This document shows positions 6,251 through 63,479 of a stretch of DNA of 64,000 bases, piece by piece. The translations under genes and the position numbers were made by a program. How positions within the stretch are numbered: the first letter of the stretch is position 1; each line of letters starts with the position of its first letter. The DNA is from a virus (taxonomy: Duplodnaviria; Caudoviricetes): the IMG/VR virus record IMGVR_UViG_3300027891_000004, positions 64,001 to 128,000 of that record; one strand, given 5' to 3'. The notes beneath the pieces were generated by a model that searched no databases, was not told where the DNA came from, and was given only the letters and a program-made list of their open reading frames with translations.

Positions 6251-6925
6251 TTAGCCGTCGAGCGAGGCAATAAAATCTTTAATTTCGTTGACCTTCGCCT
6301 CAAACGCATCCCGGTACTTTGGGTCTACTTTCACGTCCGGGCGGTTCATGTGCATCCGCCCTATAGTGATCCATTGTTGTATCCCTTCGATATTTTGCTT
6401 AAACGACGCATCCATTTTATTCAAAAAGCGTTCTTTTTCCGCCAACTTATCTCCCCATTTGGAAGGATCGGATTTCGCAAAATCGCCCAAAAACTTTTTT
6501 GAAGTAGCGTCAATATCTTTCCACTTCAAATCCGAACGCAAATCTCGCAAATCCCTTGTCATCACATCTAAAACAGAGCCAGGAGTACGCGGCCCAGTCA
6601 ACGTGCTCATATCCGTATACCCGCTGCTCGGATCGTATACGTACTTGATTTCGTTGAACGCGGCCTGGCTCGACCCGGCCGGACGCGATTGCCCGCCGGT
6701 GTTACGCTCGAAAACGCTAAGATCGGCCACCCCGTCGCTACTGTAGTATTCCCTATCGCTCATATCATCCTCATCTTCTTTAACTTCATAAGTGTCGGCT
6801 ACGAGTGCCCTATAGTTCTTCCAATCTTCCCACGTAACGCCGTTCCACAAGGCAACAAGGAAAAAGTAGCCCAGAATCAAAACTGGCGTTAGCACAACAC
6901 CGATTATAACAAAAGGTATAAACAT
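6251..6925 (-). CDS. Leader-family protein with internal leader behind an N-terminal hydrophobic segment (alternative start 6763)
   Basis: Internal VADLSVFERNTGG...SQAAFN matches the family leader. Confidence 0.6.
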   Translation of the reverse strand: MFIPFVIIGVVLTPVLILGYFFLVALWNGVTWEDWKNYRALVADTYEVKEDEDDMSDREYYSSDGVADLSVFERNTGGQSRPAGSSQAAFNEIKYVYDPSSGYTDMSTLTGPRTPGSVLDVMTRDLRDLRSDLKWKDIDATSKKFLGDFAKSDPSKWGDKLAEKERFLNKMDASFKQNIEGIQQWITIGRMHMNRPDVKVDPKYRDAFEAKVNEIKDFIASLDG

Positions 6926-6982
6926 AGCAACATAGTCGGGTGAAAAAGTGTGGGAAAAACGGAAAATAGTCGCCGCTAAAGG

Positions 6983-7633
6983 TTAAATCGAAGCCGGAGA
7001 TTCATTGATTTTTTTGAGTTCTTCGACGCTCTGTTCCATCCGGTCCAAAGCGTTCATTGCTTCTTGGGCCATCGCGGACGAGCCGCCAGCCACTTTTTCT
7101 TTAATGTCTTCTCGCAACAGGTCGGCCATTACTTCGTCGGGTTCGCCGTCCGCGTTTACCGGGGTATTGATTTCTACAATTTTTTCGATGAGCGTATCTA
7201 CATCGGGCTGTATCTCGCCTGTATTGGTAAGCGAGAGCATCTTTCCTAGCAGGTCCATACCTTCCACGTTCACAAAACCTTCGGGGAACAGCATATCACG
7301 GAATTGCTCGAACGTGAACGGCGGATTTTGGATCATCTGATACATCAGACGGGACATCCCGTAGGCACTCCCAAAAAGGATGTCACGCCCGTCCCCGTAT
7401 TGGAACGTTAGTTTTGCACAATAGGCCAGCGCCGCCATAAGCAACTCCTGCTTTTCAACCGCGTTCATACCGTCGGTAGCGAGCGTTACGTTCTTCATAT
7501 ACTGTTGCCGTACCCAAACGTCGAGTTCTTCGTAATCCTTCGCCGTTATATGCTTGAGGATAACGGGGGTCCCGTTCGGCAATGTGAACGGATGTGCAAC
7601 GGTACGCGGGTCAACTTGTTTTTCTTCTGACAT
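6983..7633 (-). CDS. Putative tail assembly chaperone (paralog of 12815..13576)
   Basis: Upstream of the tape measure. Aligns with 12815 (DYEELDVWVRQQY/DLIDFNTWLKYKY; LTFQYGDG/FDFQVGIG; LFPEG/FFPNG). Confidence 0.5.
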   Translation of the reverse strand: MSEEKQVDPRTVAHPFTLPNGTPVILKHITAKDYEELDVWVRQQYMKNVTLATDGMNAVEKQELLMAALAYCAKLTFQYGDGRDILFGSAYGMSRLMYQMIQNPPFTFEQFRDMLFPEGFVNVEGMDLLGKMLSLTNTGEIQPDVDTLIEKIVEINTPVNADGEPDEVMADLLREDIKEKVAGGSSAMAQEAMNALDRMEQSVEELKKINESPASI

Positions 7634-7692
7634 CGTGATAGTTATTGCTAAGGGCTATCGGGGCGACGGTTCCAAATATGGCTGCCATCCTC

Positions 7693-8058
7693 TTAATCTT
7701 TTCCTAAACTGTCATTATCATCCTGGATAATATCGGTTTTAATGTTGTGGATTGCCGTTCTGCCTTCCGGAGCGCATCGAGAACTGAACGCCTGTACAAT
7801 TTCTAAGCGAATGTAGCGGTATGGGCACATCTGTTCCGCTTCAAGTTCCGGCGGCATCAAAACATTTTCAACGTTGAATGCGGCTATGCGGTCGTTGTGT
7901 TTCACAAAATTGCGTATCGTTACCTGCAATTCGTCGATAACCAATTTGTCGCCCCGGACAAACATTTCAACAAACTCATCTATTGACCGGACATCCCAAA
8001 TCGTACAACCGGGTAGCGTCCAACCTCTGGGCGGCCTTATTGTTATTTTAATTTTCAT
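7693..8058 (-). CDS. Hypothetical protein, partner of leader gene 8055
   Basis: 4-bp ATGA overlap with the upstream leader gene. Confidence 0.6.
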   Translation of the reverse strand: MKIKITIRPPRGWTLPGCTIWDVRSIDEFVEMFVRGDKLVIDELQVTIRNFVKHNDRIAAFNVENVLMPPELEAEQMCPYRYIRLEIVQAFSSRCAPEGRTAIHNIKTDIIQDDNDSLGKD

Positions 8059-8462
8059 TGTGATCCGCCATATTTTTCTTTAAAATAATCATCGTATTGG
8101 ACAATATCTGATATTGTATAAACGCCCAATTCCATTAGCTCTTTTTTTCTATCTGCGTAATCATCTTTCCGTTTATCAATCATCGACATCATCGCCTTAT
8201 TAAGGTGCTGTTGAATTCTATCGCCGTCAGTTGGCATCCTTAAACGCCGCGATTCTTCGATAACTTCCTCTTCTAGCCCTAGAATAATATCTTTTTGTTT
8301 TTCCGCATCCCATTCGTTCCACGGTTGTGGTTTGCCTATAAACTCAGCATTATCAACCGTTGCGCCTTCGGTCGTGTTTTCCTCTTGAAACGCTGACATA
8401 TTGCCGCTACCACCGGCTTTGCCCGTTTCAAGCAATTCATTGAAACTACTCGCTACTCTCAT
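8055..8462 (-). CDS. Leader-family protein (MRVxxSFNELL subtype)
   Basis: MRVASSFNELLETGKAGGSGNMSAFQ; 22/26 identical to the 8870 leader, unrelated cargo. Confidence 0.8.
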   Translation of the reverse strand: MRVASSFNELLETGKAGGSGNMSAFQEENTTEGATVDNAEFIGKPQPWNEWDAEKQKDIILGLEEEVIEESRRLRMPTDGDRIQQHLNKAMMSMIDKRKDDYADRKKELMELGVYTISDIVQYDDYFKEKYGGSQ

Positions 8463-8533
8463 TTTATGTTTCATTCAAAAAAGTAACAAACGCAAACATC
8501 CGTAGTATGCCTGTTCCTATTATTTATCTGTTG

Positions 8534-8851: not shown

Positions 8852-8869
8852 GTTTTTCTAACAACAGTG

Positions 8870-9199
8870 CTATTCAAACCAGCCGTGCCCGTATTTCCAT
8901 TTGCCAAAACCATGCGTATTCTTAAATTGATCCGCCTGTTCTCTTGTAATTGACCGATAGCCTTCAAGAAAAAACGGATTGCCTTCAGAACCCGGTTCTG
9001 TTACAACAATGTCATACCCATCTCTATCCTGCGCAATATACAGCGAAATATCATAAAAAGATACGGGAGATAAATCCTCAACGGGCTTTTCTCCGGTCGG
9101 CATATTCTCCACTGAAACAGATTGAAACGCTGACATATTGCAGCTGCCACCGGCATTGCCCGTTTCAAGCAATTCATTGAAACTACCCACTACTCGCAT
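8870..9199 (-). CDS. Leader-family protein (MRV subtype), cargo type A
   Basis: Leader ...MSAFQSVSVEN; cargo homologous to 18525 (FKNTHGFGKW vs FKNTHKFDKW). Confidence 0.8.
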   Translation of the reverse strand: MRVVGSFNELLETGNAGGSCNMSAFQSVSVENMPTGEKPVEDLSPVSFYDISLYIAQDRDGYDIVVTEPGSEGNPFFLEGYRSITREQADQFKNTHGFGKWKYGHGWFE

Positions 9200-14119: not shown

Positions 14120-14482
14120 CTATTTTTTCCGTTTCAATGCCTCGCGCACTTGGCTATCCTGTTCGTCGGCGATTTCGTAGGCAACGGTATCGTTCGCGTT
14201 GTGCGCATCCCGCAGCTGAATCCTAAAAAAATTGACGAGTTTATTCAAATCATCAACGCTATAGGCGGCGTACTCTTTGATGTTTTGTTCTCTTTCGCTT
14301 ACCAATTTCTTCAGGTCCTCGGAACCGACGGCACCCTGAAAACTAAGCGTCCAGTCCAATTTTCCTTTTGGTTCCCGCATCGAGGGTAGCGGACCAACCG
14401 GGACGGGCATCGCCGCGTTAAATGAGGCATTAGCGCATTGTTGCAAATGCTCAAACTGTGATATGTCTGCCAATTTTTTCAT
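14120..14482 (-). CDS. Leader-family protein
   Basis: MKKLADISQFEHLQQCANASFN. Confidence 0.8.
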   Translation of the reverse strand: MKKLADISQFEHLQQCANASFNAAMPVPVGPLPSMREPKGKLDWTLSFQGAVGSEDLKKLVSEREQNIKEYAAYSVDDLNKLVNFFRIQLRDAHNANDTVAYEIADEQDSQVREALKRKK

Positions 14483-14948: not shown

Positions 14949-15386
14949 CTAATCCTCTCGTAACAGCTGTTGCCTTGCCTGCTCATCTTGCCAATCTTTT
15001 ACAAAACCATTTCTGTTCTTTTTAATGTGTTTTTTGATGTCGCTTACAATAGGGGCAGGTATGCCATTATTTTCGGCCAACTCGACAACGGCCTGACCAT
15101 TGTATTCAAGCCAAAATTTTGCTTTTCCTTCCGGCGTATAGACGTGAACGTGCATAGGTTCTGTTCTGCCGCCATGCTGTTCTTCGTCAACGTAAACAGA
15201 AAATGAAAAACCACGAAATGGCGGCGTATTCTTTGATTTGGGCGACATATTGCCGACAACGGCACTTTGAAATGCACCTGACAACTTGGAAACTGCCGCA
15301 CCATCATTAAACATGGACATTTCGCTTCGAGGCATATCCCAGTTCCCCAACGATTCAAACATTGATATATCAGCCAACCTTTCCAT
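14949..15386 (-). CDS. Leader-family protein carrying a DUF4160 domain
   Basis: Leader MERLADISMFESL...MSMFN...AFQSAVVGN, then MSP...FRGFSFSVYVDEEQH...EPMHVHV...AKFWL...KDW. Confidence 0.8.
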   Translation of the reverse strand: MERLADISMFESLGNWDMPRSEMSMFNDGAAVSKLSGAFQSAVVGNMSPKSKNTPPFRGFSFSVYVDEEQHGGRTEPMHVHVYTPEGKAKFWLEYNGQAVVELAENNGIPAPIVSDIKKHIKKNRNGFVKDWQDEQARQQLLRED

Positions 15387-15418: not shown

Positions 15419-15802
15419 TTACTCTTGGAGATACCTACGATTCCATGATTCGCATATACGTCTTAGAGATTCTTTGAAATCTTCTTCATCGTCTTCCGCA
15501 TACCATGTTACTGTTTGCATACCGCATTCTGGATTGCTGCAACTAGCGTATAATCCATGAGGATTTATTGTAAATTCCACGCCGTAAGTGCCATCTTCTT
15601 TTTTCACGCTTCGTCCACCATTTTTTCCGGGATAAAAGGCGTATTCAATACGAGGCTTTTCCTGCCCACAATTTGCGCACGGTAACAATGAAACCTCAAA
15701 CGGTTCTATTAACGCTAGAATTTCGGCTTCATTTTCCAACATGCAGGCATAAAAACAAGCGGCAGAACCGGGCTTGAATTCTGGGGTCAATTTACTATTC
15801 AC
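15419..15802 (-). CDS. Lar-like zinc-finger protein
   Basis: LLPCANCG...CSNPECG...WNRRY; paralog of 18108 and 8534. Confidence 0.7.
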   Translation of the reverse strand: MNSKLTPEFKPGSAACFYACMLENEAEILALIEPFEVSLLPCANCGQEKPRIEYAFYPGKNGGRSVKKEDGTYGVEFTINPHGLYASCSNPECGMQTVTWYAEDDEEDFKESLRRICESWNRRYLQE

Positions 15803-16199
15803 AGCTCACCTCTTCATTTTCAAATTTTACCAAACCTTCTATACTGTCGCCCCAAGTAGAACCGGAACGAACGCGGTTTATGTATTGTAACGCCTCTGCC
15901 CGGTCCGTAAAAGGCGATCCTTGTACAACAAATGAATCTTCCATCGGGTTATCTGGGTTTGTCGCAATTATATCCAAACCTTTGCCTTCCGGATTTTTTC
16001 GTAACGAAAATTTATACTGTTTTCCGGTCATCTTGCTTTTAGGCTTACTAAAATTTGGCGACATACTATCTACGATGGCATCTTGAAAAATCTCCGACAG
16101 GCGAGCAACCGCACCACTATTAAACATGGACATTTCGCTTCGAGGCATATCCTCGCTCCCCAACGATTCAAACATTGATATATCTGCCAACTTTTCCAT
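15795..16199 (-). CDS. Leader-family protein, divergent cargo type A
   Basis: Leader 24/27 identical to 14949; cargo YKFSL...GLDIIATNP resembles 8870 and 18525. Confidence 0.8.
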   Translation of the reverse strand: MEKLADISMFESLGSEDMPRSEMSMFNSGAVARLSEIFQDAIVDSMSPNFSKPKSKMTGKQYKFSLRKNPEGKGLDIIATNPDNPMEDSFVVQGSPFTDRAEALQYINRVRSGSTWGDSIEGLVKFENEEVSCE

Positions 16200-16237: not shown

Positions 16238-16768
16238 TTATTTCAATCCGGCCCGCACATTGTTGTCCATATCTTCAATATCGTTTTTGAATGTTTCGTA
16301 TGCCGCATCGAGGTCTTTGTCGCCGTTCTGCAATTGATCGAAAATTCTGTATTGTTTATCCGCCTCTTGCGACAACTTGGTATGCGAGTGCAAAAACGTA
16401 CCCAACGAATCCAACATCCCCTGCTCGCCCTGGGCTACTTTTGCCAGTGTCTGTATCTCTTTTTTCGGTATACTGGGAAACTGTTTGACGACTGATTTAA
16501 GCGTCCGTTTACCCCCGTTCAATTCACGCAGGGCCGAATAGACCTTTTTGAATTCGGGTCCCGTCACGCCCCGGCTCTCAAACTGTCCCATAAACGCCTC
16601 TTTTTGCGCCCGGAAATCATCGCCCGCCTGTGCCGCCTCGTAATGGAACGGCTTTACTTTTTCAACGAACCCGTCCGATAATTGCGAGTTGAAACACGAC
16701 ATGGGCGACATCATGCGTTGATTCGCGTGTGCCTGCAACGATTCAAATTGTGAAATATCTGCCTGCAT
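16238..16768 (-). CDS. Leader-family protein
   Basis: MQADISQFESLQAHANQRMMSPMSCFN. Confidence 0.8.
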   Translation of the reverse strand: MQADISQFESLQAHANQRMMSPMSCFNSQLSDGFVEKVKPFHYEAAQAGDDFRAQKEAFMGQFESRGVTGPEFKKVYSALRELNGGKRTLKSVVKQFPSIPKKEIQTLAKVAQGEQGMLDSLGTFLHSHTKLSQEADKQYRIFDQLQNGDKDLDAAYETFKNDIEDMDNNVRAGLK

Positions 16769-16772: not shown

Positions 16773-17291
16773 TTACTTTTGTTGTGCGTAGTATTGCATC
16801 GCTTCCTCTTTGGTAGCGAATTTTGGCATTTCTTTTTTCGGTTGCGCCGTCCCGCCGGGCAATTCTACGGGTTTGAAAGCGTCGCCGCCCAACAGGTACG
16901 TATTGCCCAAAAACGACTTGGCTATCGCCGCCTGTTTTTTCATCAAGCGGTCATGCGCTTTCGGATCGTCTTTAACCTGTTCGCCTTCCTGTCGTATCTC
17001 GCGGCTAACTTCGCCGACCCCGGCTTTCATAGTATCGACCGCGTTATCGATTTCCGGGCGGATCGATTTGTATGTTTGCTGCGCCTGCCGCACTTCCTGC
17101 TCGTTTCGGGAATGCCAAATATCCTGCTGCGTTTCGTAGACTCCGCGCAAACCGCCTTTCAATATCTCATAGGCGCGGTCCATCGATTGGAGCGTCTGGT
17201 CCAATTCGGGCGAATTGAAGCATGACATAGCAGATACCCCGCCACGTGGCGGGGTATCCAATAATTCGTTAAATGAATTTACAACTCGCAT
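16773..17291 (-). CDS. Leader-family protein (MRV subtype); start revised from 17483
   Basis: MRVVNSFNELLDTPPRGGVSAMSCFN. Confidence 0.8.
   Translation of the reverse strand: MRVVNSFNELLDTPPRGGVSAMSCFNSPELDQTLQSMDRAYEILKGGLRGVYETQQDIWHSRNEQEVRQAQQTYKSIRPEIDNAVDTMKAGVGEVSREIRQEGEQVKDDPKAHDRLMKKQAAIAKSFLGNTYLLGGDAFKPVELPGGTAQPKKEMPKFATKEEAMQYYAQQK
17233..17258. repeat. Dispersed palindrome copy inside a leader coding region
   Basis: Perfect 26-bp GATACCCCGCCACGTGGCGGGGTATC encoding DTPPRGGVS. Confidence 0.9.
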
Positions 17292-17293: not shown

Positions 17294-17641
17294 TTATCTT
17301 TGGGCTATTGCCTGTTCTATCCGATCCAAACGAGTATTTGTATCGCTTTGCAACCGGAGTAGTTTTGCATCTACGTTTGCAAAACCGTTCTTTGTGGTGA
17401 TTTCCAAATTGTCCATTCGGCTTTCTAATTTTCCAAACCGTTCGTCTATTTTTCCAAATCGCTCGTCCACCTGCTTCCTCCACTCAACCAATGGAAGATT
17501 ACTCTGTATAGGCGTAGCTGAACTTATGGGACTTATGCCACTCGGCGCATTTTGCACAGGATTAAACGCCCCCAAACCGGAAACAGGGGCACCCACGGCT
17601 CCCAACGATTCAAACATACCAATATCAGCGAGCTTTTCCAT
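17294..17641 (-). CDS. Leader-family protein, coiled-coil cargo type B
   Basis: MEKLADIGMFESLG...LGAFNPVQN; DNLEITTKNGFANVDAK. Confidence 0.8.
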   Translation of the reverse strand: MEKLADIGMFESLGAVGAPVSGLGAFNPVQNAPSGISPISSATPIQSNLPLVEWRKQVDERFGKIDERFGKLESRMDNLEITTKNGFANVDAKLLRLQSDTNTRLDRIEQAIAQR

Positions 17642-17646: not shown

Positions 17647-18069
17647 TCACTTTCGTAAAAGTTGTTCCCGGTACGCTTGGTAGCTTTCGGGCGTTAGGTT
17701 CAGGTAACGGAGCATTTCCTGCGAAGGCGTCTCCGTTTTTCTAATCGCATCCTGTACTTGCAACATCCCCTTTTCGCGTGAGGCTCGTTCGGCGCCCCAA
17801 TCGTCATACGGATCATCCTGCCGGTCCCCGGCGGCGTCGCCCGTAGCGAAATCGGGGTAGACCCGCTTGATCGTTTTGGCTACATCGCGTGGGTGCATCC
17901 GACCCCCGTCGTCCAAATAAGAGAGCATATCGGGCAGGGTAGTGCCCTGGAACGCGGCGTTTACGCTCACGGCGCGCAGGCTACGGTCATCAAACGTAAA
18001 CATAGCGGGTATGCCAAATGCCGCGTTCTGTTGCGTCTGTAGCTGCGAAAATAGTGGGATACTGTCCAT
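17647..18069 (-). CDS. Leader-family protein (MDSIPLFSQL subtype)
   Basis: First 41 aa identical to 18525, then unrelated. Confidence 0.8.
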   Translation of the reverse strand: MDSIPLFSQLQTQQNAAFGIPAMFTFDDRSLRAVSVNAAFQGTTLPDMLSYLDDGGRMHPRDVAKTIKRVYPDFATGDAAGDRQDDPYDDWGAERASREKGMLQVQDAIRKTETPSQEMLRYLNLTPESYQAYREQLLRK

Positions 18070-18524: not shown

Positions 18525-18887
18525 CTAAAATAAGTACCCCCACTTATCAAACTTATGCGTATTTTTGAACGCGATTGCTTCTTGAGCCGTTATATTATCC
18601 ATATCTTCGATATACGCTGTTTGTTTGCCGCCATCGGGGTCTGAAACGGCAATCCCACACCTGTCCGTTCCTTGAACAGGGTGTAGCGAAAAAACGTAAT
18701 GTCTGTCTGGACGCAATTCTGATAAAGAGATTAAGCCGCTCGGAAAGTTTTCTACGGAAACGTCTTGGAACGCGGCGTTTACGCTCACGGCGCGCAGGCT
18801 ACGGTCATCAAACGTAAACATAGCGGGTATGCCAAATGCCGCGTTCTGCTGCGTCTGCAACTGCGAAAAAAGAGGGATAGAATCCAT
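18525..18887 (-). CDS. Leader-family protein (MDSIP subtype), cargo type A
   Basis: ...VNAAFQDVSVEN; cargo homologous to 8870. Confidence 0.8.
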   Translation of the reverse strand: MDSIPLFSQLQTQQNAAFGIPAMFTFDDRSLRAVSVNAAFQDVSVENFPSGLISLSELRPDRHYVFSLHPVQGTDRCGIAVSDPDGGKQTAYIEDMDNITAQEAIAFKNTHKFDKWGYLF

Positions 18888-19260: not shown

Positions 19261-19605
19261 CTATCTTTGCATAAGAGCTTGTTTGATACTTGCCACATCC
19301 TGCTCCAAACGATCAAATCGCGTATTTGTGTCGTTATGCAACCGTTCTATTTTTGCGTCTACGTTTGCGAAACCGTTCTTTGTAGCAATTTCCAAATTAT
19401 CAATTCGGGCTTCAAGGCCATCGACCCGCTTGCTCAAATTCTGGCCCCATTGTGGCATAGGAAGGTTACCCTGGACGGACGCGGGGGAACCGACGGGGTT
19501 CACGCCCGGCGCGTTCTCAATCGTATTGAACGCGCCCAAATTCGACAATCCGACGTTTCCGGTTCCAAGCGATTCAAACATCCCAATATCTGCGAGTTTT
19601 TCCAT
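19261..19605 (-). CDS. Leader-family protein, coiled-coil cargo type B
   Basis: MEKLADIGMFESLG...LGAFNTIEN; DNLEIATKNGFANVDAK. Confidence 0.8.
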   Translation of the reverse strand: MEKLADIGMFESLGTGNVGLSNLGAFNTIENAPGVNPVGSPASVQGNLPMPQWGQNLSKRVDGLEARIDNLEIATKNGFANVDAKIERLHNDTNTRFDRLEQDVASIKQALMQR

Positions 19606-19634: not shown

Positions 19635-20027
19635 CTATTGTGGCAATTCGTCGGGCGAGCCGCTACCAAAACTAGGCGAGCCGATAAGGGCTGGCGGGCC
19701 GCCTGAGGGGACGCTCGGCGTGTCTGAGGACTGGTCATTCCCCATACCGCCTTTTTGCAGGTCGGCCACGGCGGTCCGCGTACCACGCATACCAGCATCC
19801 AATCTATTATTCAACTCGTCAAGAACCCCCTCAAGTTTCGCTTGTTCGGCCTCGGCCTCGGCGTCCGCCCGGAGCCTGCGAAGCGAATCAATTTGCGTCA
19901 TCCAACTTTCGACGCTTGTTTTAATATCCTCAACAGTCGCGTTAAACACGGACATGGGCGACATCATGCGCCGGTTCGCGCTCGATTGGAGATTCTCAAA
20001 CATTGAAATATCGGCAAGTTTTTCCAT
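19635..20027 (-). CDS. Leader-family protein
   Basis: MEKLADISMFENLQSSANRRMMSPMSVFN. Confidence 0.8.
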   Translation of the reverse strand: MEKLADISMFENLQSSANRRMMSPMSVFNATVEDIKTSVESWMTQIDSLRRLRADAEAEAEQAKLEGVLDELNNRLDAGMRGTRTAVADLQKGGMGNDQSSDTPSVPSGGPPALIGSPSFGSGSPDELPQ

Positions 20028-20265: not shown

Positions 20266-21060
20266 TCAATAGTCGCTGGCCGCCTCGAACCTGGCCTTTT
20301 CTTTTTCAAACTTAGCTTGATATTCTGCTAACTCTTGCCTCGCTTTTTCAATATATTCGGATTCAGAAACAGGGTCTTTTGAATAGGGAAACCGCCGCTC
20401 CAACTGCGCTAATTTCATCTCAGCCTGTTCAAACCGATCTTGGGCATCAAACATCCAACGTCGTAATGCTGGCGTGTTTTGGGAATCTTCCCATTTCTTT
20501 ATCTCGTCAAATTTTGGGATTGTGCGCTTTATATCGTCAAGCTGCTCTTTAATGACAGATGGGCGTTCGTCATAGTCACGTTCGTTTCCTTTTTCATCGT
20601 ATTTATCGGGGTTTCCCGTGGCAATCCTTTTCGCCCGCTCCAATTTGTCGCTTTCGCTTTCTGTTATTTGCCGCTGCGGTCGATCATCCTCTATCGGCAA
20701 CTTTTTTTGGACCGGCTGTTGGTCAATTTCGGCCAACAATTGCTGAGCTTTCGCCTGCGTGTCTTTGCCGACACGACGGCGGGTAGTTGCGACAGCATCA
20801 AAAAACTGACGAGCGACTTCTCTATCTCGTTCGTCCCAGCTACCAATTACGTCCGCCAACGTATCCGGCAACTCCAATTGGTTTTGGTCCAACGGACCAC
20901 TTTCATCTCTTAGCTCGTTTAATTTTTCTTGATAATATGCGGCACGGGCGCCGTTAAACGTATGTTTGTAGTTAAACACGCTCATCTGCGACATGCCCAT
21001 CGCGTTGTGTGCGCCGGATTGAAGGTTCTCAAACACAGAAAGGTCTGCTAGTTTTTGCAT
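20266..21060 (-). CDS. Leader-family protein, long helical cargo
   Basis: MQKLADLSVFENLQSGAHNAMGMSQMSVFN. Confidence 0.8.
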   Translation of the reverse strand: MQKLADLSVFENLQSGAHNAMGMSQMSVFNYKHTFNGARAAYYQEKLNELRDESGPLDQNQLELPDTLADVIGSWDERDREVARQFFDAVATTRRRVGKDTQAKAQQLLAEIDQQPVQKKLPIEDDRPQRQITESESDKLERAKRIATGNPDKYDEKGNERDYDERPSVIKEQLDDIKRTIPKFDEIKKWEDSQNTPALRRWMFDAQDRFEQAEMKLAQLERRFPYSKDPVSESEYIEKARQELAEYQAKFEKEKARFEAASDY

Positions 21061-21183: not shown

Positions 21184-22878
21184 TTAAGCCGCCATTTTGA
21201 ATTCATCGCCATCTTCTTCCAAACGCGACGCTTCGTCGGCGACGATAAGTTTCTTCAATTCCGGCGACATGTCCAACAAAAACGGGTACCGGGACGCCAG
21301 CGAATGGAGCTGCGCAAGGTAGACACGTTTCATATCGTCCGACGATTCGCCCAGGTACATCGCCATAGCGTTCCGCGTCTCGGCGAATACCTCGTTCATC
21401 GCCTTCGTAAACGCGGTATCTACGCTTTTTCCGCTTATCGCGTCCGCCCCGTCATCGGTAGTTGACTGGGCGATCCGCGTAGCATCGGGCAACGAATCGG
21501 CTTTGGAATCCCCGTACTTTTTAATATGGGACAACACGGCGGCCTGCGCCGCCTTCAATTCCACGTCAAGGTTTTCCAACTCACGCAAGTCGGCGGGATC
21601 GAGCGGTTTCTTAGCCTTGAGCAATTTTGCGTTCTTTTCCTCCAACTCCGCGATCCGTGTCCGAATGTCTACTGCAATAGCACGCAACCGCTTGCGCTCC
21701 GCATTCTTTTTTTCAACCTCTTCACTATCGAACGAACCCTTCGGTCGCCCGGTCGAGGCCGACTCCCACAACCCGTCCTCAGTCTGCCGGAACTTAAACC
21801 CGCCACGCGCGTCGTTCAGAAGGTTCAGAATCAACGCCTCATTGAATGAGGTAACGAGTACCTGTGCCGCGTTTCTTAATTTCTTAACCGTACTTACGAA
21901 CAGGTCTTCACCCTCTTCCAAATCGTCGGAGGCCACGATTTCGGGGTTATCCTGCATCTCCTCACGAGCGGGCACCTCCTCAAGAACAATTTCGGGCGTG
22001 TCCGGCATAGCTTCGGACAAACTTGCCACTTTCGCGGGACCTGTCGGCGGCTCAATTGTGATTTTGTAACCCTCGGCTGTTGTAAACGATTGCACGCCGG
22101 GCATGACCGGGCCCGCGCCCATTGATTCCAAAGGCGGCGCGACGGCTACTTTTATTTCTGTATGCGCCGTGCCGTGCGCATTCGCGTTTTTCGCATCGGT
22201 GTGTCCCTGTTCTTCTCTAAAAAGTCGTGTAGATTCCATAACCGGCGACCCCGCAAGATAATCATTGTTGATGTACGTAGTAATGATATTCAACGTTTCT
22301 CCCGCTTTCATTTCTTTTCGTTCGTTAATGAGCAACCCGGCCCCATCCGATAGGCTACAAGCGCCCTGTTTACGGGGCAGGATAGCGAGATGGTCGGCCC
22401 GGATGTTGATGATACGCCCGATATACGGTTCGCTATTCCATACGCCCTCATCCATGATGAGTTCGGAGAACAGACCGGTCGATATTTCCATCGGGAGCCG
22501 GTGTTTGATATGCTCAAGCAGGGTAGGGCACTTCTCCTCGGCCTTGCGTCTATCGATCCACGCTTCGGCCTTGAGCTTACCGTCCACAAAATGCGTATTC
22601 ATAATCATCCCGACCGCCTGCCGCTTGTAGACTTCGAGATCGGTCGCCGTATCGCCCCGGAACGGATGTTCGATTACGACGGGCTTGAAATTCCACATTT
22701 TGGGCGTTTTTGCCAACTCTTCGGTATCGTAATAAACGGGCCCCTGCGAGCCGGTATGGACCCCTTCGAGGATCATCGTCATCGGGGCGACGACGTATTC
22801 ACGGTCGTCAAGCGTTTCGTACCGAACCGTCGGGTCGATAGTTACGTTCCAAATGGTTTCTATTTTGTTGCGTGGCAT
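21184..22878 (-). CDS. Prohead protease (DUF2213-like) with long C-terminal extension
   Basis: YVVAPMTMILEGVH, WNFKPVVIEHP, LKAEAWID, EISTGL, DHLAILP...GACS..DGAG. Confidence 0.85.
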   Translation of the reverse strand: MPRNKIETIWNVTIDPTVRYETLDDREYVVAPMTMILEGVHTGSQGPVYYDTEELAKTPKMWNFKPVVIEHPFRGDTATDLEVYKRQAVGMIMNTHFVDGKLKAEAWIDRRKAEEKCPTLLEHIKHRLPMEISTGLFSELIMDEGVWNSEPYIGRIINIRADHLAILPRKQGACSLSDGAGLLINERKEMKAGETLNIITTYINNDYLAGSPVMESTRLFREEQGHTDAKNANAHGTAHTEIKVAVAPPLESMGAGPVMPGVQSFTTAEGYKITIEPPTGPAKVASLSEAMPDTPEIVLEEVPAREEMQDNPEIVASDDLEEGEDLFVSTVKKLRNAAQVLVTSFNEALILNLLNDARGGFKFRQTEDGLWESASTGRPKGSFDSEEVEKKNAERKRLRAIAVDIRTRIAELEEKNAKLLKAKKPLDPADLRELENLDVELKAAQAAVLSHIKKYGDSKADSLPDATRIAQSTTDDGADAISGKSVDTAFTKAMNEVFAETRNAMAMYLGESSDDMKRVYLAQLHSLASRYPFLLDMSPELKKLIVADEASRLEEDGDEFKMAA

Positions 22879-23325: not shown

Positions 23326-23380
23326 TAGTATACCAAATTTTCAGCTACCGTGTAAAAAACGCGCACTAGAGAATTTTTTT
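23326..23380 (-). promoter_or_regulatory. Repeated promoter, copy 1 (TTTACA-N18-TATACT plus conserved upstream box)
   Basis: Shares TGTAAAAAACGCGCACTAGAGAATTTTTTT and TAGTATACCA with 33676..33730 and 37362..37417. Confidence 0.75.
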
Positions 23381-23466
23381 AGCACATTTACCAAAAATAT
23401 GCCAAAATACACAAGAACAACCATCGAAGTTTACCAAAAATGCGCCGCTTTTACACGGAACGAATT

Positions 23467-23482
23467 TTTATGATATAATGCG
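23467..23482 (+). promoter_or_regulatory. Extended -10 promoter (TG-A-TATAAT), identical 16-mer at 62844..62859
   Basis: TTTATGATATAATGCG upstream of both plus-strand type C leader genes. Confidence 0.7.
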
Positions 23483-23521: not shown

Positions 23522-24055
23522 ATGTTTGCTGATATATCCGTTTTTGAGAATTTACAGCGGGGCGCACACAGCGCTATGGGTCTGTCACATATCGCCGTTT
23601 TCAACGGGTTCGTTGACGACGAGGCGAAGCGAAGAGCCGAATGGTGCGACGCCGAAATCGGTAAAATGAAACAAGAAATAACTGAAATACGCGATGAGCT
23701 GCTAAAAGCGCACAATAGCTACAATTTTCAACAGTATTTAATGGAACGTGGCGAAAGCGATAAATCACGAAAGGAAGAGTTGACAAGAAAAATAGAATAC
23801 CTTGACGAACGAAACAAGCAACTACAGGCGACGGACACAGATGGAAAATTTGTTACCGTATGTGCAGGAATTGAATCGTGCCTTGAGGACTTTCAAACAC
23901 AAATTAGCAGGGCAATAGACAACCCGGCGCGACCAATACCACCAAAAAGACCACCAGGACAATTACCAAAACGCCCTCCTCAAGGATTTCATAATTCTAC
24001 GCATGGCACGCCACTCTGTTTAGGGCTCTCCGTGTTTAATAAACCTTCCGAATAG
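23522..24055 (+). CDS. Leader-family protein, cargo type C
   Basis: MFADISVFENLQRGAHSAMGLSHIAVFN; DTDGKFVTVCAGIE matches DPDGRFAVPCFAIE of 34203 and the equivalent in 62904. Confidence 0.8.
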   Translation: MFADISVFENLQRGAHSAMGLSHIAVFNGFVDDEAKRRAEWCDAEIGKMKQEITEIRDELLKAHNSYNFQQYLMERGESDKSRKEELTRKIEYLDERNKQLQATDTDGKFVTVCAGIESCLEDFQTQISRAIDNPARPIPPKRPPGQLPKRPPQGFHNSTHGTPLCLGLSVFNKPSE

Positions 24056-27872: not shown

Positions 27873-29024
27873 CTAAATAACGGGCTTCGGCGCAGACAAT
27901 CTCGCGTGCAAGATACCTGCCCTTCCGTAAAAGTCCGATTTAAGACGAGGCAACAAAATGCAGATTACCTTGAAGTGGATTTCAAATCCTCCTTCTGTTT
28001 GCCACTGGACGGTGGTGATATCCATACCGGTAACGGCTTGGATGGTATTCTGGTCGAGTTCGATCATGACGAAAGTTCCGTAGGGTAGGAACTCGGAGCA
28101 ATTGATCGACTTGATTTCTTTGATCTTTTCCAACCGTTCTCGGAGCGTAATAGTGCTCGTTTGCCCGGCGGTATGATCGTTATAATCATCGTCGAGGATT
28201 TGGTCAAAATCGGGGCTATGGTAGATAGCGAACGGTCCGTAGTGCCGGATGTCGTGCAGGTTCCGTCGAGCGTCGAGGATTTGCCTGTAGAGGATAGCTG
28301 GCGACCAATCGGGATCGCGTGATCCATCGACCCTTGCCCAGTTGGTAAAGACTTTTGTAAGTCTTTGCGGGTAGTTGCACACGCCGTAGACGTTTCCGCC
28401 TCCGAACTGGAAATCGGGTTCGACGCCGAGCGCGAGTCTTTCGACTTTTTCGGCGACCATCCGGGACGCCATACCTGCGGTGGTTACGTCGATGGGCATA
28501 TTGGAGTTCCGGGAGACGGCGATTTGCCGTGCGCTGAAGCTGAAATCCTTGTGGATGATCGGCAACGGCATCTGATCCATGTCGTACATGGGCCGGTCCG
28601 CGTCCCCTTTGCGAAGCCCGTCCATACTGACGGTTGCGCCGGTGATATTGGATTGCCGTTCGTACTGCCACACGGTTTTCCCTAGCGCGTTTGGCAGGTT
28701 GACGTTAAGCCCGGCGGCTCGTAGGTCGTTGAAGAACCGGAGTCGTGGCATTGCTGCGGCGACGACGGTTTCGTCGATCATAACCCAGTCATCCTTTCGG
28801 AGCGTAGCTGCGTTTGTGGTCTGCACGTTTTTGAGAACGGGCTTCCCGTCTTTCCAACCGATTTGTTGCGAGATGAGCGAGGTATGCCCGTCATCGTGCA
28901 GGAACGGTCGGATGCAGCGGGGGTCGAAGTTGTAGGTAAGCAACCGGGTGGCAACGTCGCCGGACCCGCCGATTAGACTTGCGCCGTTCGTAATAGAAAC
29001 GGGCATCGCGTTCAGATTTTGCAT
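27873..29024 (-). CDS. Major capsid protein (HK97 fold, linocin/encapsulin-like family)
   Basis: NAATLRKDDW..IDETVV, PLPIIHKDFSFSARQI, YGPFAIY, ITTVQWQTEGG...FKV, GILH; 383 aa with AAGGA RBS and terminator. Confidence 0.9.
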   Translation of the reverse strand: MQNLNAMPVSITNGASLIGGSGDVATRLLTYNFDPRCIRPFLHDDGHTSLISQQIGWKDGKPVLKNVQTTNAATLRKDDWVMIDETVVAAAMPRLRFFNDLRAAGLNVNLPNALGKTVWQYERQSNITGATVSMDGLRKGDADRPMYDMDQMPLPIIHKDFSFSARQIAVSRNSNMPIDVTTAGMASRMVAEKVERLALGVEPDFQFGGGNVYGVCNYPQRLTKVFTNWARVDGSRDPDWSPAILYRQILDARRNLHDIRHYGPFAIYHSPDFDQILDDDYNDHTAGQTSTITLRERLEKIKEIKSINCSEFLPYGTFVMIELDQNTIQAVTGMDITTVQWQTEGGFEIHFKVICILLPRLKSDFYGRAGILHARLSAPKPVI

Positions 29025-30118: not shown

Positions 30119-30550
30119 CTATTCTTGTATTTCTCTTTTTTTATGGCCTTTTGATTTTTCTTTAGCACCGTACCAAAGTGGCGGTCCGTATGTTAGCGCA
30201 TCTTCAAACGTATCCTCATAGCCCATTTTGTTGCCATCCAAATCTCTTCCCAACGCGATGCGCCCGAGTGCTTCTCCTTGTTTTTGTATATTTCTTTCTA
30301 CGCCTTCCTCTATTTTCTTTTGCAATTCTGCGTTTACATCCTGTGCTTTCGCAAGCAATTTGGTTCTTTCTTTTTGGCTTGTTTCTCTATTAGCCGCCTC
30401 GGACAAACCTTCATATTTTCGTTCTAAAGGCTGTTCGCTTTGCGACCCGAAATTATCTGCGAACACGCTCATGGGCGACCGCGTGGCCATTTGTTGGTTA
30501 GCTGTCGCCTGTAAATTTTCAAAAACTGAAATATCTGCGAGTTTTTGCAT
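30119..30550 (-). CDS. Leader-family protein
   Basis: MQKLADISVFENLQATANQQMATRSPMSVFADN. Confidence 0.8.
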   Translation of the reverse strand: MQKLADISVFENLQATANQQMATRSPMSVFADNFGSQSEQPLERKYEGLSEAANRETSQKERTKLLAKAQDVNAELQKKIEEGVERNIQKQGEALGRIALGRDLDGNKMGYEDTFEDALTYGPPLWYGAKEKSKGHKKREIQE

Positions 30551-30993: not shown

Positions 30994-31266
30994 CTACTTG
31001 AAATACAAATGGTCCTTACGGCTATCTTCGGACACGGTGTACAACCCGTTATCCTCGATCAATTCGTCTTGTCTCTTGGCCAGCGCGTTATAGTCGGGCC
31101 ACCGGGTCGATTCTCGCAACGCGCCCGAAACGGCGTCCAGTTCGCATAAACTACACGAATCGCCCTTGTTTGCGTTGTATACATCCTGGAAGGAACTCAT
31201 GGCATTTACACTGGTCCCTCCCACGAACGTATCGAAAAAATTAGTAATTGGTTGTCTATCGTTCAT
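30994..31266 (-). CDS. Divergent leader-family protein
   Basis: ITNFFDTFVGGTSVNAMSSFQDVYN. Confidence 0.55.
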   Translation of the reverse strand: MNDRQPITNFFDTFVGGTSVNAMSSFQDVYNANKGDSCSLCELDAVSGALRESTRWPDYNALAKRQDELIEDNGLYTVSEDSRKDHLYFK

Positions 31267-36302: not shown

Positions 36303-36571
36303 TGGTTATTACCGAGCAATTGTTGAAAATCATTCAAAAAACCGGTATACCGGTACCCGTACATAGATTGCGCAAAATCCCGAACGACATTTTCTACGTA
36401 CACGGTGTCCGAAGCGTTCTTAACGGCTTTGACAATATAATGGAAACTGTCTTTTCCGGGGTTGGCCTTGAAATTATGTAACGCCTTTGCTACTACGCGA
36501 TGGTCGCTTGCGAAAGCATTATCCTCGTTGAATACTCCGTTCAATTGGATCGGTTTTTTTTGTTCCCACAT
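36290..36571 (-). CDS. Hypothetical protein (weak GVFN motif near N-terminus)
   Basis: ORF coupled to its neighbours. Confidence 0.45.
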   Translation of the reverse strand: MWEQKKPIQLNGVFNEDNAFASDHRVVAKALHNFKANPGKDSFHYIVKAVKNASDTVYVENVVRDFAQSMYGYRYTGFLNDFQQLLGNNQCDQ

Positions 36572-37361: not shown

Positions 37362-37417
37362 TAGTATACCAAATTTTCATATAAGTTGTAAAAAACGCGC
37401 ACTAGAGAATTTTTTTT
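37362..37417 (-). promoter_or_regulatory. Repeated promoter, copy 3
   Basis: Same conserved boxes as 23326..23380. Confidence 0.75.
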
Positions 37418-50184: not shown

Positions 50185-50526
50185 TTATCTTTGTTCCAAT
50201 CGTGTGATAGCCTGCTGCATTTGTCCAAGCGTTTGTTCTGTTTTCGCGAACCCGTCCGTTACTACCGTTTTTAGCGTGTCAACGTCAGAACGCAACGATT
50301 TAAGTTGACCATTGACCGAGTTCTTCCATTCGGGCGTGAACTCGTCATCCTGCGTCGCCGCGGATTTTGCGGCGGGCTGCACATTGCCGCTACTTATAGT
50401 CCCGTTAGGATTCGATGTCATATCAAACCCGTCATTCTCTATCGTATTGAACGCCCCGAGATTCGACAAACCGCCGTTTCCGGCTCCGAGCGATTCAAAC
50501 ATACCAATATCAGCCAGCTTTTCCAT
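50185..50526 (-). CDS. Leader-family protein, coiled-coil cargo type B
   Basis: MEKLADIGMFESLGAGNGGLSNLGAFNTIEN. Confidence 0.8.
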   Translation of the reverse strand: MEKLADIGMFESLGAGNGGLSNLGAFNTIENDGFDMTSNPNGTISSGNVQPAAKSAATQDDEFTPEWKNSVNGQLKSLRSDVDTLKTVVTDGFAKTEQTLGQMQQAITRLEQR

Positions 50527-52911: not shown

Positions 52912-53324
52912 ATGGACCAATTCGCCGATATTTCACGATTTGAAAATTTGCAGTAAATATACGGTTTGCCAACGAAAGTAAGATGGCTGCGTTTAATGAA
53001 AATATAGCGGTAGAAAACGACATTTTCAAAAAGAACGGGATTTTCATAGACGAAAACAAATTGCCGCCAGAAGAAAAACAAGAGTGTGAACTCATCAATA
53101 AATTTGAATCGATATATTTCACTGACATAGGCCGTCTAGCAGCACTAAGGTCCAACCCCAAAACGCAAGCACAAATTGAAGATGAATTTAACGGCGTCTA
53201 CCAAGAAAACGAAATTGAAAAAGAGCTAGAAGAAACAAAAGATAATTTTCAAATCAGGCGTGAGGTAGCAAAAGAAAACTACGGCATTGAAACTATTTCA
53301 AGGTGCCCGCCGTTAAACCGCTAA
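52912..53324 (+). pseudogene. Leader-family gene with a frameshift inside the leader
   Basis: MDQFADISRFENLQ* (52912..52956) continues in another frame as VNIRFANESK-MAAFNENIAVEN. Confidence 0.65.
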
Positions 53325-61480: not shown

Positions 61481-61516
61481 TGGTATTTATTGATATAAGT
61501 TGATCTGTGTTGAAAT

Positions 61517-62041
61517 CTAATGGGATGAGGCCCTGCCGTAGTAGGCGATCAAAGCCGCCTCCGCCCGGTCGGGCATGATTATTTTTTTCCCTTTCTTGCA
61601 CGCCCGTTCAAACAGGCTGGCCGAGTCGGGAAATAACTCTTTCGCTTTACAAACGCTTTCCATTTTCTCCCTCCGTTTTTTCGGATGGTATAAATCTGGA
61701 AACGATTTGAGCCATGTACTAGGCTCAACTCCCCGGAACGGGATGTTTGCGGTTTCAAACGCACACCGGAAAACTCCGTATGATTCGTGCGTGGACATCG
61801 TGGTCTGGATATGGAACCCGCGACCGGCAAATATAGGTTTCTCACATACGCATAACGCCACCTCCTTCCGCTTAAGTTTCCAAGCGATCCAATCGTTTAC
61901 CAAACGCGGGTTCGCCGAACATTTCGACGCGCCGGTACTGTCATAAAAAACGCTGATATCGAAGACATCAAGTGAATTGTCGTCGTACAACAGCGCGACA
62001 GCACCCGATTTTCCGGGATCGATACCTACGTATACTGACAT
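61517..62041 (-). CDS. RuvC-like Holliday junction resolvase
   Basis: VGIDPGKSGAVA, CEKP, VEPSTW, DRAEAALIAYY. Confidence 0.85.
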   Translation of the reverse strand: MSVYVGIDPGKSGAVALLYDDNSLDVFDISVFYDSTGASKCSANPRLVNDWIAWKLKRKEVALCVCEKPIFAGRGFHIQTTMSTHESYGVFRCAFETANIPFRGVEPSTWLKSFPDLYHPKKRREKMESVCKAKELFPDSASLFERACKKGKKIIMPDRAEAALIAYYGRASSH

Positions 62042-62068
62042 GGTATATGCCGTTATTGAAAGAGTATT

Positions 62069-62803
62069 TTAAGAAAAAGCAGATAAATAATCGGCAATTA
62101 TTTTAGCAGGTATCCCGTAGTTTGTCAAACGTATACGCACTTCTTTTAAAAGATACTCGTTGTTTATAACGGCGGTATAAACATGCGTACGGTTCCAATC
62201 CCGCCACGCCAGAAAATGCCGGGTCACATACTCTCGCGTATCGCCAAAATACTCACGCACGCGGCGTCGGACGTTTTCAGGAATACCAGATTCGTCCCAT
62301 TTTTTCAAAAATGCTCGCAAATTAAAAAGCGACTGGCTCACGGCAGTTACCAAATCTTCCCAATCGCAAACCCAACGTTCAATCTTTAACGATTTGAGTA
62401 CCGTTTGCAGTTCTTCCTCAGGGATAGGGCGACACGTTCTTTCGTACCTGCTCTCCAAATAGGTAAAATCCTCGAGAAACGAATCGGCTGTGGTATGCGC
62501 CCAACCTTTATTAAGACGCCAGTTTTTAACATAGAAATCAAAAACCGCGTCTACCTTTTCAAGCGGGACATTCGCAGAAAAACGGTCAAAACTACGCGCC
62601 CAATCGTCAAGCATTTGCGGCGGATTTTTCGTGTCCGGCACACGGTTTACAGTGAAGCGCACAAAATCCCATAGTTTTTGTGCAAGCCGTCTTGCAGTGG
62701 CGGTGGGTTCTTTCTTTTTGTATGCAAACATGAAATTTGGTGTGATGGCTTTTGTAGGTATGCCAACTTTCGATGAAAAAACAAGGTAAACGTCAAAACG
62801 CAT
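62069..62803 (-). CDS. Hypothetical protein (possibly replication-related)
   Basis: ORF in the replication cluster. Confidence 0.5.
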   Translation of the reverse strand: MRFDVYLVFSSKVGIPTKAITPNFMFAYKKKEPTATARRLAQKLWDFVRFTVNRVPDTKNPPQMLDDWARSFDRFSANVPLEKVDAVFDFYVKNWRLNKGWAHTTADSFLEDFTYLESRYERTCRPIPEEELQTVLKSLKIERWVCDWEDLVTAVSQSLFNLRAFLKKWDESGIPENVRRRVREYFGDTREYVTRHFLAWRDWNRTHVYTAVINNEYLLKEVRIRLTNYGIPAKIIADYLSAFS

Positions 62804-62903
62804 GGAAAATTCGCTAGTGCGCCCGATTCCCAAAGTTTACGGATTTATGATATAATGCGGTGGAAGCTGTACTTCAACTGCAAACTTTAACTCGCAAGTA
62901 GAC

Positions 62904-63479
62904 ATGCAAAAGCTAGCCGATCTTCACGTTTTCGAGGGACTTCAACGCGATGCGCACGCACAAATGAATCTATCGCATTTCGCTGTTTTCAACGACTACA
63001 GCGACGCGGAAAAGCAAGAGCGTTCCGCAAGAATAAAGCAGGAGATAGAACAGATAAATCAGGAAATAGGTAAATTGGAAACTGAGGCCCCACAGGCATT
63101 GGCAAAAATGAGAGCGGGATACGATGCGGCAATGGAAGCGTTGGGGCCTATCCCGCGCGGGACAGGTTGGGACGGCGCTGAGGAACGACAGTACCGCGAT
63201 AAGATGAAACAAAAGGCACAAGAAAAACACAACGAAATATACGAATGGCCACTACGAGAAATGAGGGATAGGACTGATTCGCTACACGCGCGTATAAAAG
63301 AAATACGCGACAACGATCCAGAGGGACGGTATGCAGTTCCGTGTTTTGCGATAGAGGACAAACTCAACAAATTTGAAACTCAAATAAGAACAGCTGTTGA
63401 AGCAGACGAACGAAAGAAGATGGGTTTCAATGATTTCAAAGGATACCAAAACATGTCCGCTATGGCGGCGTTTCAATAG
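62904..63479 (+). CDS. Leader-family protein, cargo type C
   Basis: MQKLADLHVFEGLQRDAHAQMNLSHFAVFN; ends NMSAMAAFQ. Confidence 0.85.
   Translation: MQKLADLHVFEGLQRDAHAQMNLSHFAVFNDYSDAEKQERSARIKQEIEQINQEIGKLETEAPQALAKMRAGYDAAMEALGPIPRGTGWDGAEERQYRDKMKQKAQEKHNEIYEWPLREMRDRTDSLHARIKEIRDNDPEGRYAVPCFAIEDKLNKFETQIRTAVEADERKKMGFNDFKGYQNMSAMAAFQ

Follow-up and report, generated by a model that had tools for sequence, protein, structure and literature searches.

An N-terminal leader shared by diverse proteins of an uncultured tailed phage, most likely an expanded counterpart of the T4 capsid-targeting signal

Bacteriophage T4 marks its internal head proteins IPI, IPII and IPIII, as well as Alt, with the capsid-targeting sequence (CTS) MKTYQEFIAE, and its prohead protease gp21 cuts after L/I-x-E. 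Here we describe a large family of proteins bearing a different N-terminal leader in an uncultured phage of the Caudoviricetes, encoded in a stretch of 64,000 nucleotides (the window) that comprises bases 64,001-128,000 of the 167,820-base IMG/VR record IMGVR_UViG_3300027891_000004, the completeness of which is rated at 94%. This leader is most likely an expanded, sequence-unrelated counterpart of the T4 signal. The internal proteins of T-even phages are diverse and have only the CTS in common, which is removed by gp21 (PMC3012670, PMC5694885). The giant phages SPN3US and phiKZ contain many processed inner-head proteins (PMC5694885, PMC7411985), and the inner-head propeptides of SPN3US, phiKZ and 201phi2-1, removed by a gp21-type protease at multiple sites, are thought to target the prohead (PMC5694885). 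The Dar system of phage P1 (DarA, DarB, Hdf and Ddr) packs anti-restriction proteins into the head during morphogenesis for delivery together with the DNA, and its component DarA undergoes processing (PMC9024508, PMC12810830). The MuF polymorphic toxins are likewise believed to be carried inside the phage head (PMC5576092, PMC3482391). Finally, gp24 of phage Pa193 is a virion protein, encoded beside the capsid gene, whose helix-turn-helix binds the capsid vertex from inside (PMC11456595).

Like the T4 CTS, the leader studied here is a short N-terminal tag on diverse proteins, ends in a motif that looks like a protease site and is transferable between cargoes; the phage also encodes a putative protease of the same fold as gp21 (Z score of the model 11.9). 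Unlike the CTS, it has no similarity to MKTYQEFIAE and no Glu at the junction, and is thus an analogue rather than a homologue. It consists of two parts and is longer (26-41 residues, as compared with 10-20 in T4), its proposed P1 residue is Asn or Gln instead of Glu, the protease is fused to a scaffold-like part, the capsid protein is of the DUF6260 type and apparently unprocessed, and approximately 20-30 genes per genome are tagged as opposed to four in T4; another difference is that the present system is known from sequence alone. The principle is therefore already familiar from T4, and what is different here is the tag sequence, its length, the proposed cleavage residue, the fusion of protease and scaffold, the capsid type and the scale. 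The original prediction, made from the letters of the window, had proposed a system independent of T4, which holds for the unrelated leader sequence and fails for the protease, a member of the same structural superfamily as gp21. The inner-head proteins of SPN3US, phiKZ and 201phi2-1 resemble the present family in that many of them, some paralogous, have N-terminal propeptides; however, these are mostly longer than 100 residues, lack a single common sequence and are cut at A/S/G-x-E. As in MuF and other polymorphic toxins, a constant N-terminal carrier is combined with variable C-terminal parts swapped by recombination, and small partner genes lie adjacent, whereas the present carrier is a peptide of 30 residues, the majority of its cargoes cannot be recognised as toxins, and conserved partners accompany only some of them. 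No MuF domain (PF04233) or any other Pfam domain was found N-terminal of the window cargoes, and their only toxin-type domain is DUF4160 in gene 14949 (genes are named by their lower coordinate in the window). In P1, loading relies on specific proteins acting in a hierarchy and not on a common leader. Pa193 gp24 has a counterpart in a window protein that matches PF09979 above the cut-off, at low identity, but neither protease activity nor leader-tagged proteins have been reported for gp24.

The leader occurs in 20 intact genes of the window, 14 of class A and six with divergent leaders, and in one further gene that is broken. The class-A leaders align as M-[EQ]-K-L-A-D-I-S-x-F-E-x-L-[GQ], followed by 6-12 variable residues and S-x-M-S-V-F-N, and all leaders, of 26-41 residues, end in Phe-Asn or Phe-Gln with the exceptions given in the list. 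The genes are listed below with the type of evidence in brackets (HMM, hidden Markov model).

8055..8462, minus strand: class B leader gene (leader alignment, DNA comparison)
8870..9199, minus strand: class B, cargo homologous to that of 18525, followed by a Lar-like partner gene (BLASTP)
14120..14482, minus strand: class A, short leader ending ASFN (leader alignment, HMM)
14949..15386, minus strand: class A, two-site leader (MSMFN then GAFQ), DUF4160 cargo (Pfam, BLASTP)
15795..16199, minus strand: class A, two-site leader and small cargo, with a Lar-like partner gene behind it (BLASTP)
16238..16768, minus strand: class A leader gene (leader alignment, HMM)
16773..17291, minus strand: class B, MRVVNSFNELL...MSCFN (leader alignment)
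17294..17641, minus strand: class A, coiled-coil cargo of one family with 19261 and 50185 (BLASTP)
17647..18069, minus strand: class C, 41-residue leader ending AAFQ (HMM, leader DNA comparison)
18525..18887, minus strand: class C, leader DNA near-identical to that of 17647, cargo homologous to that of 8870 (BLASTP, DNA comparison)
19261..19605, minus strand: class A, coiled-coil cargo of the 17294 and 50185 family (HMM, BLASTP)
19635..20027, minus strand: class A leader gene (HMM)
20266..21060, minus strand: class A, immediately downstream of the protease-scaffold gene (HMM)
23522..24055, plus strand: class A, C-terminus ...LSVFN-KPSE (leader and C-terminal comparison)
30119..30550, minus strand: class A, leader ending MSVFA (HMM)
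30994..31266, minus strand: divergent class D, leader ending MSSFQ (leader alignment, HMM)
33103..33627, minus strand: class A, in a position upstream of the capsid gene that is conserved in relatives, first behind the promoter at 33677-33719
34203..34754, minus strand: class A, helical-hairpin cargo ending ...NMSAFQ-stop (sequence, predicted structure of a paralogue)
50185..50526, minus strand: class A, outside the head region, cargo family of 17294 and 19261 (HMM, BLASTP)
52912..53324, plus strand: broken leader gene, stop after FENLQ, other frame through KMAAFN (translation, HMM)
62904..63479, plus strand: class A, own promoter, ending ...MAAFQ-stop (promoter scan, sequence)

All 14 class-A genes named in the original prediction begin with this leader, as judged by the translations of their open reading frames (ORFs) and by HMM matches. 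A 28-column alignment is common to class A, the three class-B genes beginning MRVxxSFNELL...MS[AC]F[NQ] (8055, 8870 and 16773), one of the two class-C genes beginning MDSIPLFSQL...AAFQ (17647 and 18525, the leaders of which are identical) and gene 30994; the five class-B and class-C genes thus fit the profile, as had been proposed. The class-A profile gave 16 strong and 4 weaker, partial matches in the six frames of the genome, every one at an ORF start, with E-values of 1e-8 to 1e-17 for the class-A members, while a broader profile additionally picked up both MDSIP genes (E 3e-3) and 30994 (E 3e-6), which turns from a weaker candidate into a divergent member. The gene at 52912 is damaged as described before, with a stop after ...FENLQ and a continuation in another frame through ...KMAAFN-ENIAVE; a short tandem run of the hexamer CACGCT lies just upstream of it (52880-52900, plus strand). 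Two other candidates did not survive: the supposed internal leader copy in 6251 has just the word ADLSVFE in common with the family (E ~1), and 43977 has no HMM match. Altogether, each genome has about 20 strong tagged genes, and the total may reach about 30. Comparison of the first 14 codons of 12 genes yielded 377 identical, 305 synonymous but different and 242 non-synonymous codon pairs, and every codon family for Leu and Ser is in use. The high frequency of synonymous differences indicates that selection acts on the protein sequence of the leader.

The similarity between leader genes ends exactly after F-N or F-Q, and beyond it BLASTP distinguishes approximately 15 unrelated bodies on the 20 genes (three small families and 12 singletons), in accordance with the predicted divergence of the cargoes. 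At the DNA level, the two MDSIP leaders (17647 and 18525) share 83 identical bases that end with the Gln codon of AAFQ, and the similarity is gone at the next codon; the gene pair starting at 8462 and 9199 is 89% identical over the first 81 bases, and the pair starting at 15386 and 16199 is 94% identical over the same length, after which identity in both pairs is approximately 30-35%. One small cargo family bears leaders of class B (8870), class C (18525) and, more distantly, class A (15795), thus the leader classes are interchangeable on the same cargo. New cargoes may have been gained by recombination at the leader/cargo junction. Directly downstream of each of these three leader genes (8870, 15795 and 18525) lies one of three homologous zinc-ribbon genes, at 8534-8851, 15419-15802 and 18108-18506 on the minus strand (E 1e-10 to 1e-27), with weak matches to Lar (restriction alleviation). 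Each leader gene and its Lar-like neighbour may form a two-gene cassette, encoding an effector and its partner or a toxin and its antidote.

Among the window's leader-gene cargoes, Pfam recognises DUF4160 in 14949 only. Many of the others are coiled-coil or helical. An AlphaFold model of a genome paralogue of 34203, based on a 147-sequence alignment (predicted local distance difference test, pLDDT, 84), shows the leader as a separate helix (residues 8-20), followed by a loop of lower confidence and a short helix over E-M-S-V-F-N, and the cargo as a long helical hairpin with a last short helix over N-M-S-A-F-Q. Judging from this model, the cargo looks like an internal or scaffold-like protein and not an enzyme; a search of the ESM Atlas with the 34203 cargo found nothing beyond generic helical look-alikes. 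Some leaders have two consecutive sites (14949, 15795 and class C), and tandem leader duplications are seen in the database proteins P0002 and P0036/37. By analogy, these arrangements resemble the multiple processing sites of the T4 and SPN3US propeptides (PMC5694885). In P0002, a metagenome representative of 258 amino acids, two tandem leaders precede an entire ECF-type sigma-70 factor with regions 2 and 4; provided that the tag signals packaging, this sigma factor would be delivered by the virion. The view of the cargoes as effectors fits DUF4160 and this one sigma factor, and many others, being coiled-coil, may rather be internal or scaffold-like.

A leader profile search of 1.84 billion representative proteins (cutoff E <= 1e-3) returned 151 clusters, three of them spurious repeats; about 147 of the 151 have the leader at the very N-terminus or close to it (match starts at residues 1-37, mostly 1). 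The junction in the database proteins reads M(104/140)-S/A/G-V(121)-F(140)-N(130), and the next residue is mostly D, A, S, G, E or T. The 138 database cargoes form 94 BLAST clusters, almost none of which is recognised by Pfam or PHROGs, the exceptions being a DUF4160/toxin match and the ECF-type sigma factor of P0002. No Pfam or NCBIfam model matches the leader, in line with the original prediction, in which it was not recognised from any described family, and no leader protein was found among 50,697 cultured phage records. A pattern scan of 185,579 species genomes (one each) gave 27 matches, seven of which are real and lie on seven contigs of four Planctomycetaceae metagenome-assembled genomes (MAGs; loci L142, L154-L156, L163, L165 and L166); one of these contigs, L163, has 171,649 bases and also bears the related protease and capsid gene of L140. 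The binning of these contigs is a possible host clue for the clade or an artefact. A pattern scan of metagenomes gave 51 matches, among them about 12 real leaders, and two single database matches lie on contigs of 1-2 kb without gene context. A DNA-pattern scan of IMG/VR for the leader gave a sole match, discarded as a chance hit without HMM support.

Via homologues of the protease, six relatives were reached (loci L136-L141, contigs of 23-187 kb), whose protease N-domains are approximately 56-78% identical to that of the window protein. All six keep the order capsid gene then protease gene, with several leader genes no farther than 10 kb from the protease, including a positional orthologue of 33103; L140 has seven leader genes of a MNNNVADIS... 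variant. By contrast, none of 80 IMG/VR loci with capsid proteins 34-47% identical to that of the window has a leader within 10 kb. The expectation that the leader is confined, in high copy number, to related phages with a DUF2213 protease is thus borne out, for this DUF6260-capsid lineage, by six of six relatives and none of the 80 distant capsid loci. Among cultured phages, a megablast search with 20 kb of the window gave zero matches and no close relative was found at the protein level either (50,697 records); the capsid and DUF2213 proteins match distant phages only, at 25-39% identity.

The loci of the relatives also bear on the idea that the leader is a recognition sequence for a modifying enzyme, as in ribosomally synthesised and post-translationally modified peptides, with one maturase serving many precursors. 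In L138, a radical S-adenosylmethionine (radical-SAM) gene lies 4 kb from the protease. However, radical-SAM proteins (PF04055) are absent from the 167,820-base genome, although control genomes matched, and none was seen at the loci of the other relatives; moreover, the cargoes are folded proteins of 80-500 residues and not peptides. We regard such a role as extremely improbable.

The majority of genes in the window are on the minus strand, and the leader genes lie in the region of the head genes, which include the following two.

21184..22878, minus strand: DUF2213 (Pa193_gp24) protein with an N-terminal domain of the gp21/assemblin fold and a variable helical, scaffold-like part (Pfam, PHROG, fold search)
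27873..29024, minus strand: major capsid protein (DUF6260), without leader and without an F-N motif at the N-terminus

The order on the minus strand is as follows: the promoter at 33677-33719, leader gene 33103..33627, genes for a 116- and a 470-amino-acid protein, leader genes 30994..31266 and 30119..30550, the capsid gene, HNH endonuclease and PAPS-reductase/DUF3440 genes, the promoter at 23327-23369, a small membrane-protein gene, the protease-scaffold gene 21184..22878, eleven leader genes (from 21060 down to 14120, with others interspersed), and a DUF4054-type head-completion gene at 14089. The HNH/treble-clef endonuclease (513 amino acids) and PAPS-reductase/DUF3440 (395 amino acids) genes at 25004-27729 on the minus strand, between the capsid gene and the protease operon, are probably a mobile insertion, because relatives have small head genes at that position. 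Two distantly related minus-strand genes, 6983-7633 and 12815-13576 (E 7e-6), flank variable leader-gene arrays like conserved anchors, and their orthologues in relatives are found at 18467 and 20887 of L136 and at 16140, 20477 and 21633 of L137.

Several of the leader genes share a promoter class with the head genes. Its architecture is TAGTGCGCG, TTTTTTACA, then T-R-TGGTATAMT, also written TAGTGCGCG-TTTTTTACA ... TTGGTATACT, with the extended -10 forms TGGTATACT/TGATATAAT. The promoters in the window, all found by motif, are the following.

23327..23369, minus strand: ahead of the protease operon
23437..23479, plus strand: divergent promoter ahead of leader gene 23522
33677..33719, minus strand: ahead of leader gene 33103..33627 and the block leading to the capsid gene
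37363..37405, minus strand: ahead of the block with 36290 and 35542
62814..62856, plus strand: ahead of leader gene 62904

Further promoters of this class lie in the genome at 1857 (plus), 25672 (minus) and 25834 (plus), two pairs being divergent. The shared promoter heads five leader genes, four of which stand alone on the plus strand, two of these outside the window. For the upstream element by itself, the window has three occurrences where 0.01 would be expected. Regardless of when they are expressed, the leader genes are thus co-regulated with the genes for the protease-scaffold and head proteins, and the TAGTGCGCG element suggests a site for a phage-specific activator. Another motif, ACTTTTAC, which precedes the capsid gene and a few of the leader genes and was considered as a possible untranslated-region element, failed the genome-wide check.

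Lineage and promoters together weigh on the possibility that the leader is an N-terminal module unrelated to the capsid, which would direct proteins elsewhere (to a compartment made by the phage, to the membrane or out of the cell at lysis), bind a host factor or serve as a degradation or regulation tag. The leader genes outside the head region (50185 and 62904 in the window; 1912, 144304 and 158709 in the genome) agree with such a role, as does the likeness of the shared promoter to the sigma-70 consensus, which is early in many phages. However, the leader is tied to one protease/capsid lineage and its genes have promoters in common with the protease operon, it occurs in cellular genomes solely on contigs binned in the Planctomycetaceae MAGs, and the same F-N closes short peptides on conserved head proteins (see below). 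It also lacks a hydrophobic core, and neither Pfam nor NCBIfam contains a signal or domain that matches it. The absence of Sec/Tat features asserted earlier is upheld, in that no hydrophobic stretch was found by inspection, no signal-peptide predictor having been run; with the same limit, the leader sequences contain no RR motif and no terminal GG and match no Pfam/NCBIfam signal family. A destination outside the capsid is therefore judged improbable.

The DUF2213 protein is the candidate for the enzyme that would act on the leader. It matches PF09979, the Pfam family once called DUF2213 and now named after Pa193 gp24, over residues 48-169 with 32.2 bits (cut-off 22), as well as PHROG families of head-maturation proteases. 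In 34 homologues, the first ~200 residues are very conserved, and the remainder is highly variable and helical; His41, Ser133 and His163 are invariant in all 34, and presumably form the Ser-His-His triad typical of the gp21/assemblin fold. An AlphaFold model of residues 1-210 (pLDDT 80) has T4 gp21 (5jbl) as its best structural match (Foldseek E 8e-4; VIA-align Z 11.9 over 141 residues, root-mean-square deviation 3.4), with herpesvirus assemblins next (Z 7-8.4). The prediction that the DUF2213 domain has a prohead-protease fold is thereby supported; a PDB sequence search with the protease gave no match and the fold search alone succeeded. Proteases of the S78 and ClpP types are absent from the genome.

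Two proteins of the head region that lack the long leader are among the observations pointing to F-N as a putative processing site.

35542..35841, minus strand: conserved head-region protein, short N-terminal peptide ending IFN (orthologue alignment)
36290..36571, minus strand: conserved head-region protein, N-terminal peptide ending GVFN (orthologue alignment)

Both had been listed as weaker leader candidates; the long leader is missing, but their short N-terminal peptides ending in F-N are conserved in orthologues. In orthologues of 35542 from five genomes (34-56% identical), 3-11 variable residues precede an invariant F-N, followed by S/D-V-x-D, the L141 orthologue having V-K-N; in the 36290 family (three orthologues) the sequence is V-F-N or V-L-N, with invariant Asn and Leu in place of Phe in one. 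The variation between V-F-N, V-L-N and V-K-N shows that Asn is the constant residue. A count over the 122 genes called in four relatives showed a 3-fold higher frequency of F-N within the N-terminal 45 residues than in the rest of the proteins (38/5368 as against 46/19868, p 4e-9), with 35 genes having it there.

One cargo family (34203-34754, minus strand; 62904-63479 and 23522-24055, plus strand; genome 25879-26448, plus strand; and locus L107) has the leader motif also at the C-terminus. Three paralogues and a relative end in ...MSAFQ or ...MAAFQ-stop, whereas 23522 ends in ...LSVFN-KPSE, which in sequence fits trimming to the same C-terminus. The C-terminal MSAFQ, MAAFQ or LSVFN is possibly a product-like end that binds the protease. 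These termini are also a reason to consider a docking tag without cleavage, in which the helix and MSxF[NQ] bind the scaffold, the protease or the capsid interior and the full-length products are mainly structural core proteins rather than effectors: in three paralogues and a relative the motif is the very C-terminus, with nothing behind it to remove, many cargoes are long helical hairpins or coiled coils, and the position of 33103 is conserved in relatives, as for a core head gene. However, Asn or Gln at P1, a small or acidic P1' and the abrupt end of conservation have the look of a cleavage site, the peptides of 3-11 residues before F-N on conserved head proteins are too short for docking helices, the two-site and tandem leaders suit stepwise removal, and the toxin and sigma-factor cargoes are non-structural. 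Docking without cleavage is accordingly considered rather unlikely.

Another way to break the F-N bond is without any protease, by asparagine cyclisation upon assembly. Precedents of self-cleavage at Asn are the capsid proteins of nodaviruses, VP0 of picornaviruses and mu1 of reoviruses. Asn is P1 in 130 of 140 database leaders, and no residue is better conserved in the orthologue alignments, where Asn persists even if Phe is replaced by Leu or Lys. On the other hand, Gln, Ser, Asp and Ala are also found at P1 and F-Q is used by classes B, C and D; the known Asn lyases require a folded catalytic environment, which unrelated cargoes cannot provide; and a gp21-like protease with invariant His/Ser/His is present. 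Self-cleavage therefore appears very improbable.

We favour, with moderate confidence, the reading of the leader as a capsid-targeting propeptide cut after Asn or Gln by the head protease. The amphipathic helix L-A-D-I-S-x-F-E-x-L-Q/G would recruit each protein to the prohead during assembly, its binding partner probably being either the inside of the capsid or the scaffold portion of the DUF2213 protein. The M-S-V-F-N / M-S-A-F-Q element would be cleaved on the C-terminal side of Asn or Gln by the gp21-like serine protease domain. The cut would free the cargo inside the head, and cargoes would remain in the virion; some may be internal or structural, and others, such as those with toxin domains or the sigma factor of a relative, may enter the next host with the DNA.

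Several observations weigh against this reading. The phage has no cultured relative among the 50,697 records, several leader genes sit far from the head region, and the shared promoter resembles the host sigma-70 consensus. The capsid protein and its orthologues have no F-N site near the N-terminus, the leader profile finds nothing significant in the scaffold parts, and of a candidate internal scaffold site, VTSFN-EAL, the Asn alone is kept in relatives. In addition, Pa193 gp24, the namesake of PF09979, is described only as a putative scaffold (PMC11456595). A terminal F-Q is not cleavable, hence docking may be an additional function of the motif or its only one.

If the propeptide reading is correct, the capsid-targeting principle has been reinvented in another capsid lineage with an unrelated tag and a different cleavage residue, and has grown there to cover at least a tenth of the genes, and DUF2213 gains a role as prohead protease. 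The rule of a helix plus M-S-V-F-N would then predict the virion-delivered proteome of uncultured phages, including roughly a hundred unknown cargo families that likely act in the first minutes of infection (defence, counter-defence, host takeover), and a portable packaging tag with an Asn/Gln-specific protease would become available for phage engineering. A bolder version, which we offer tentatively and think doubtful, is that in this clade of uncultured large phages, encountered in Planctomycetaceae MAG bins, the Asn/Gln-specific, gp21-like protease-scaffold fusion and the two-part leader constitute a general delivery system. Any protein bearing the tag of about 30 residues would then be packed into the head, set free by a cut after F-N and injected; dozens of interchangeable effectors, among them toxins with their partners and a sigma factor, would arrive before gene expression, with the C-terminal MSAFQ as a second, uncleavable hold on the protease.

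Two further loci in the window were observed in passing. An RtcB RNA ligase gene (9256-10365, minus strand) adjoins a tRNA-Met gene (10553-10625, minus strand) within the structural region, a pair that may serve in tRNA-repair counter-defence. A plus-strand gene at 5031-6197, with minus-strand structural genes on either side, encodes a type I restriction R-subunit N-terminal/Mrr-like nuclease domain.

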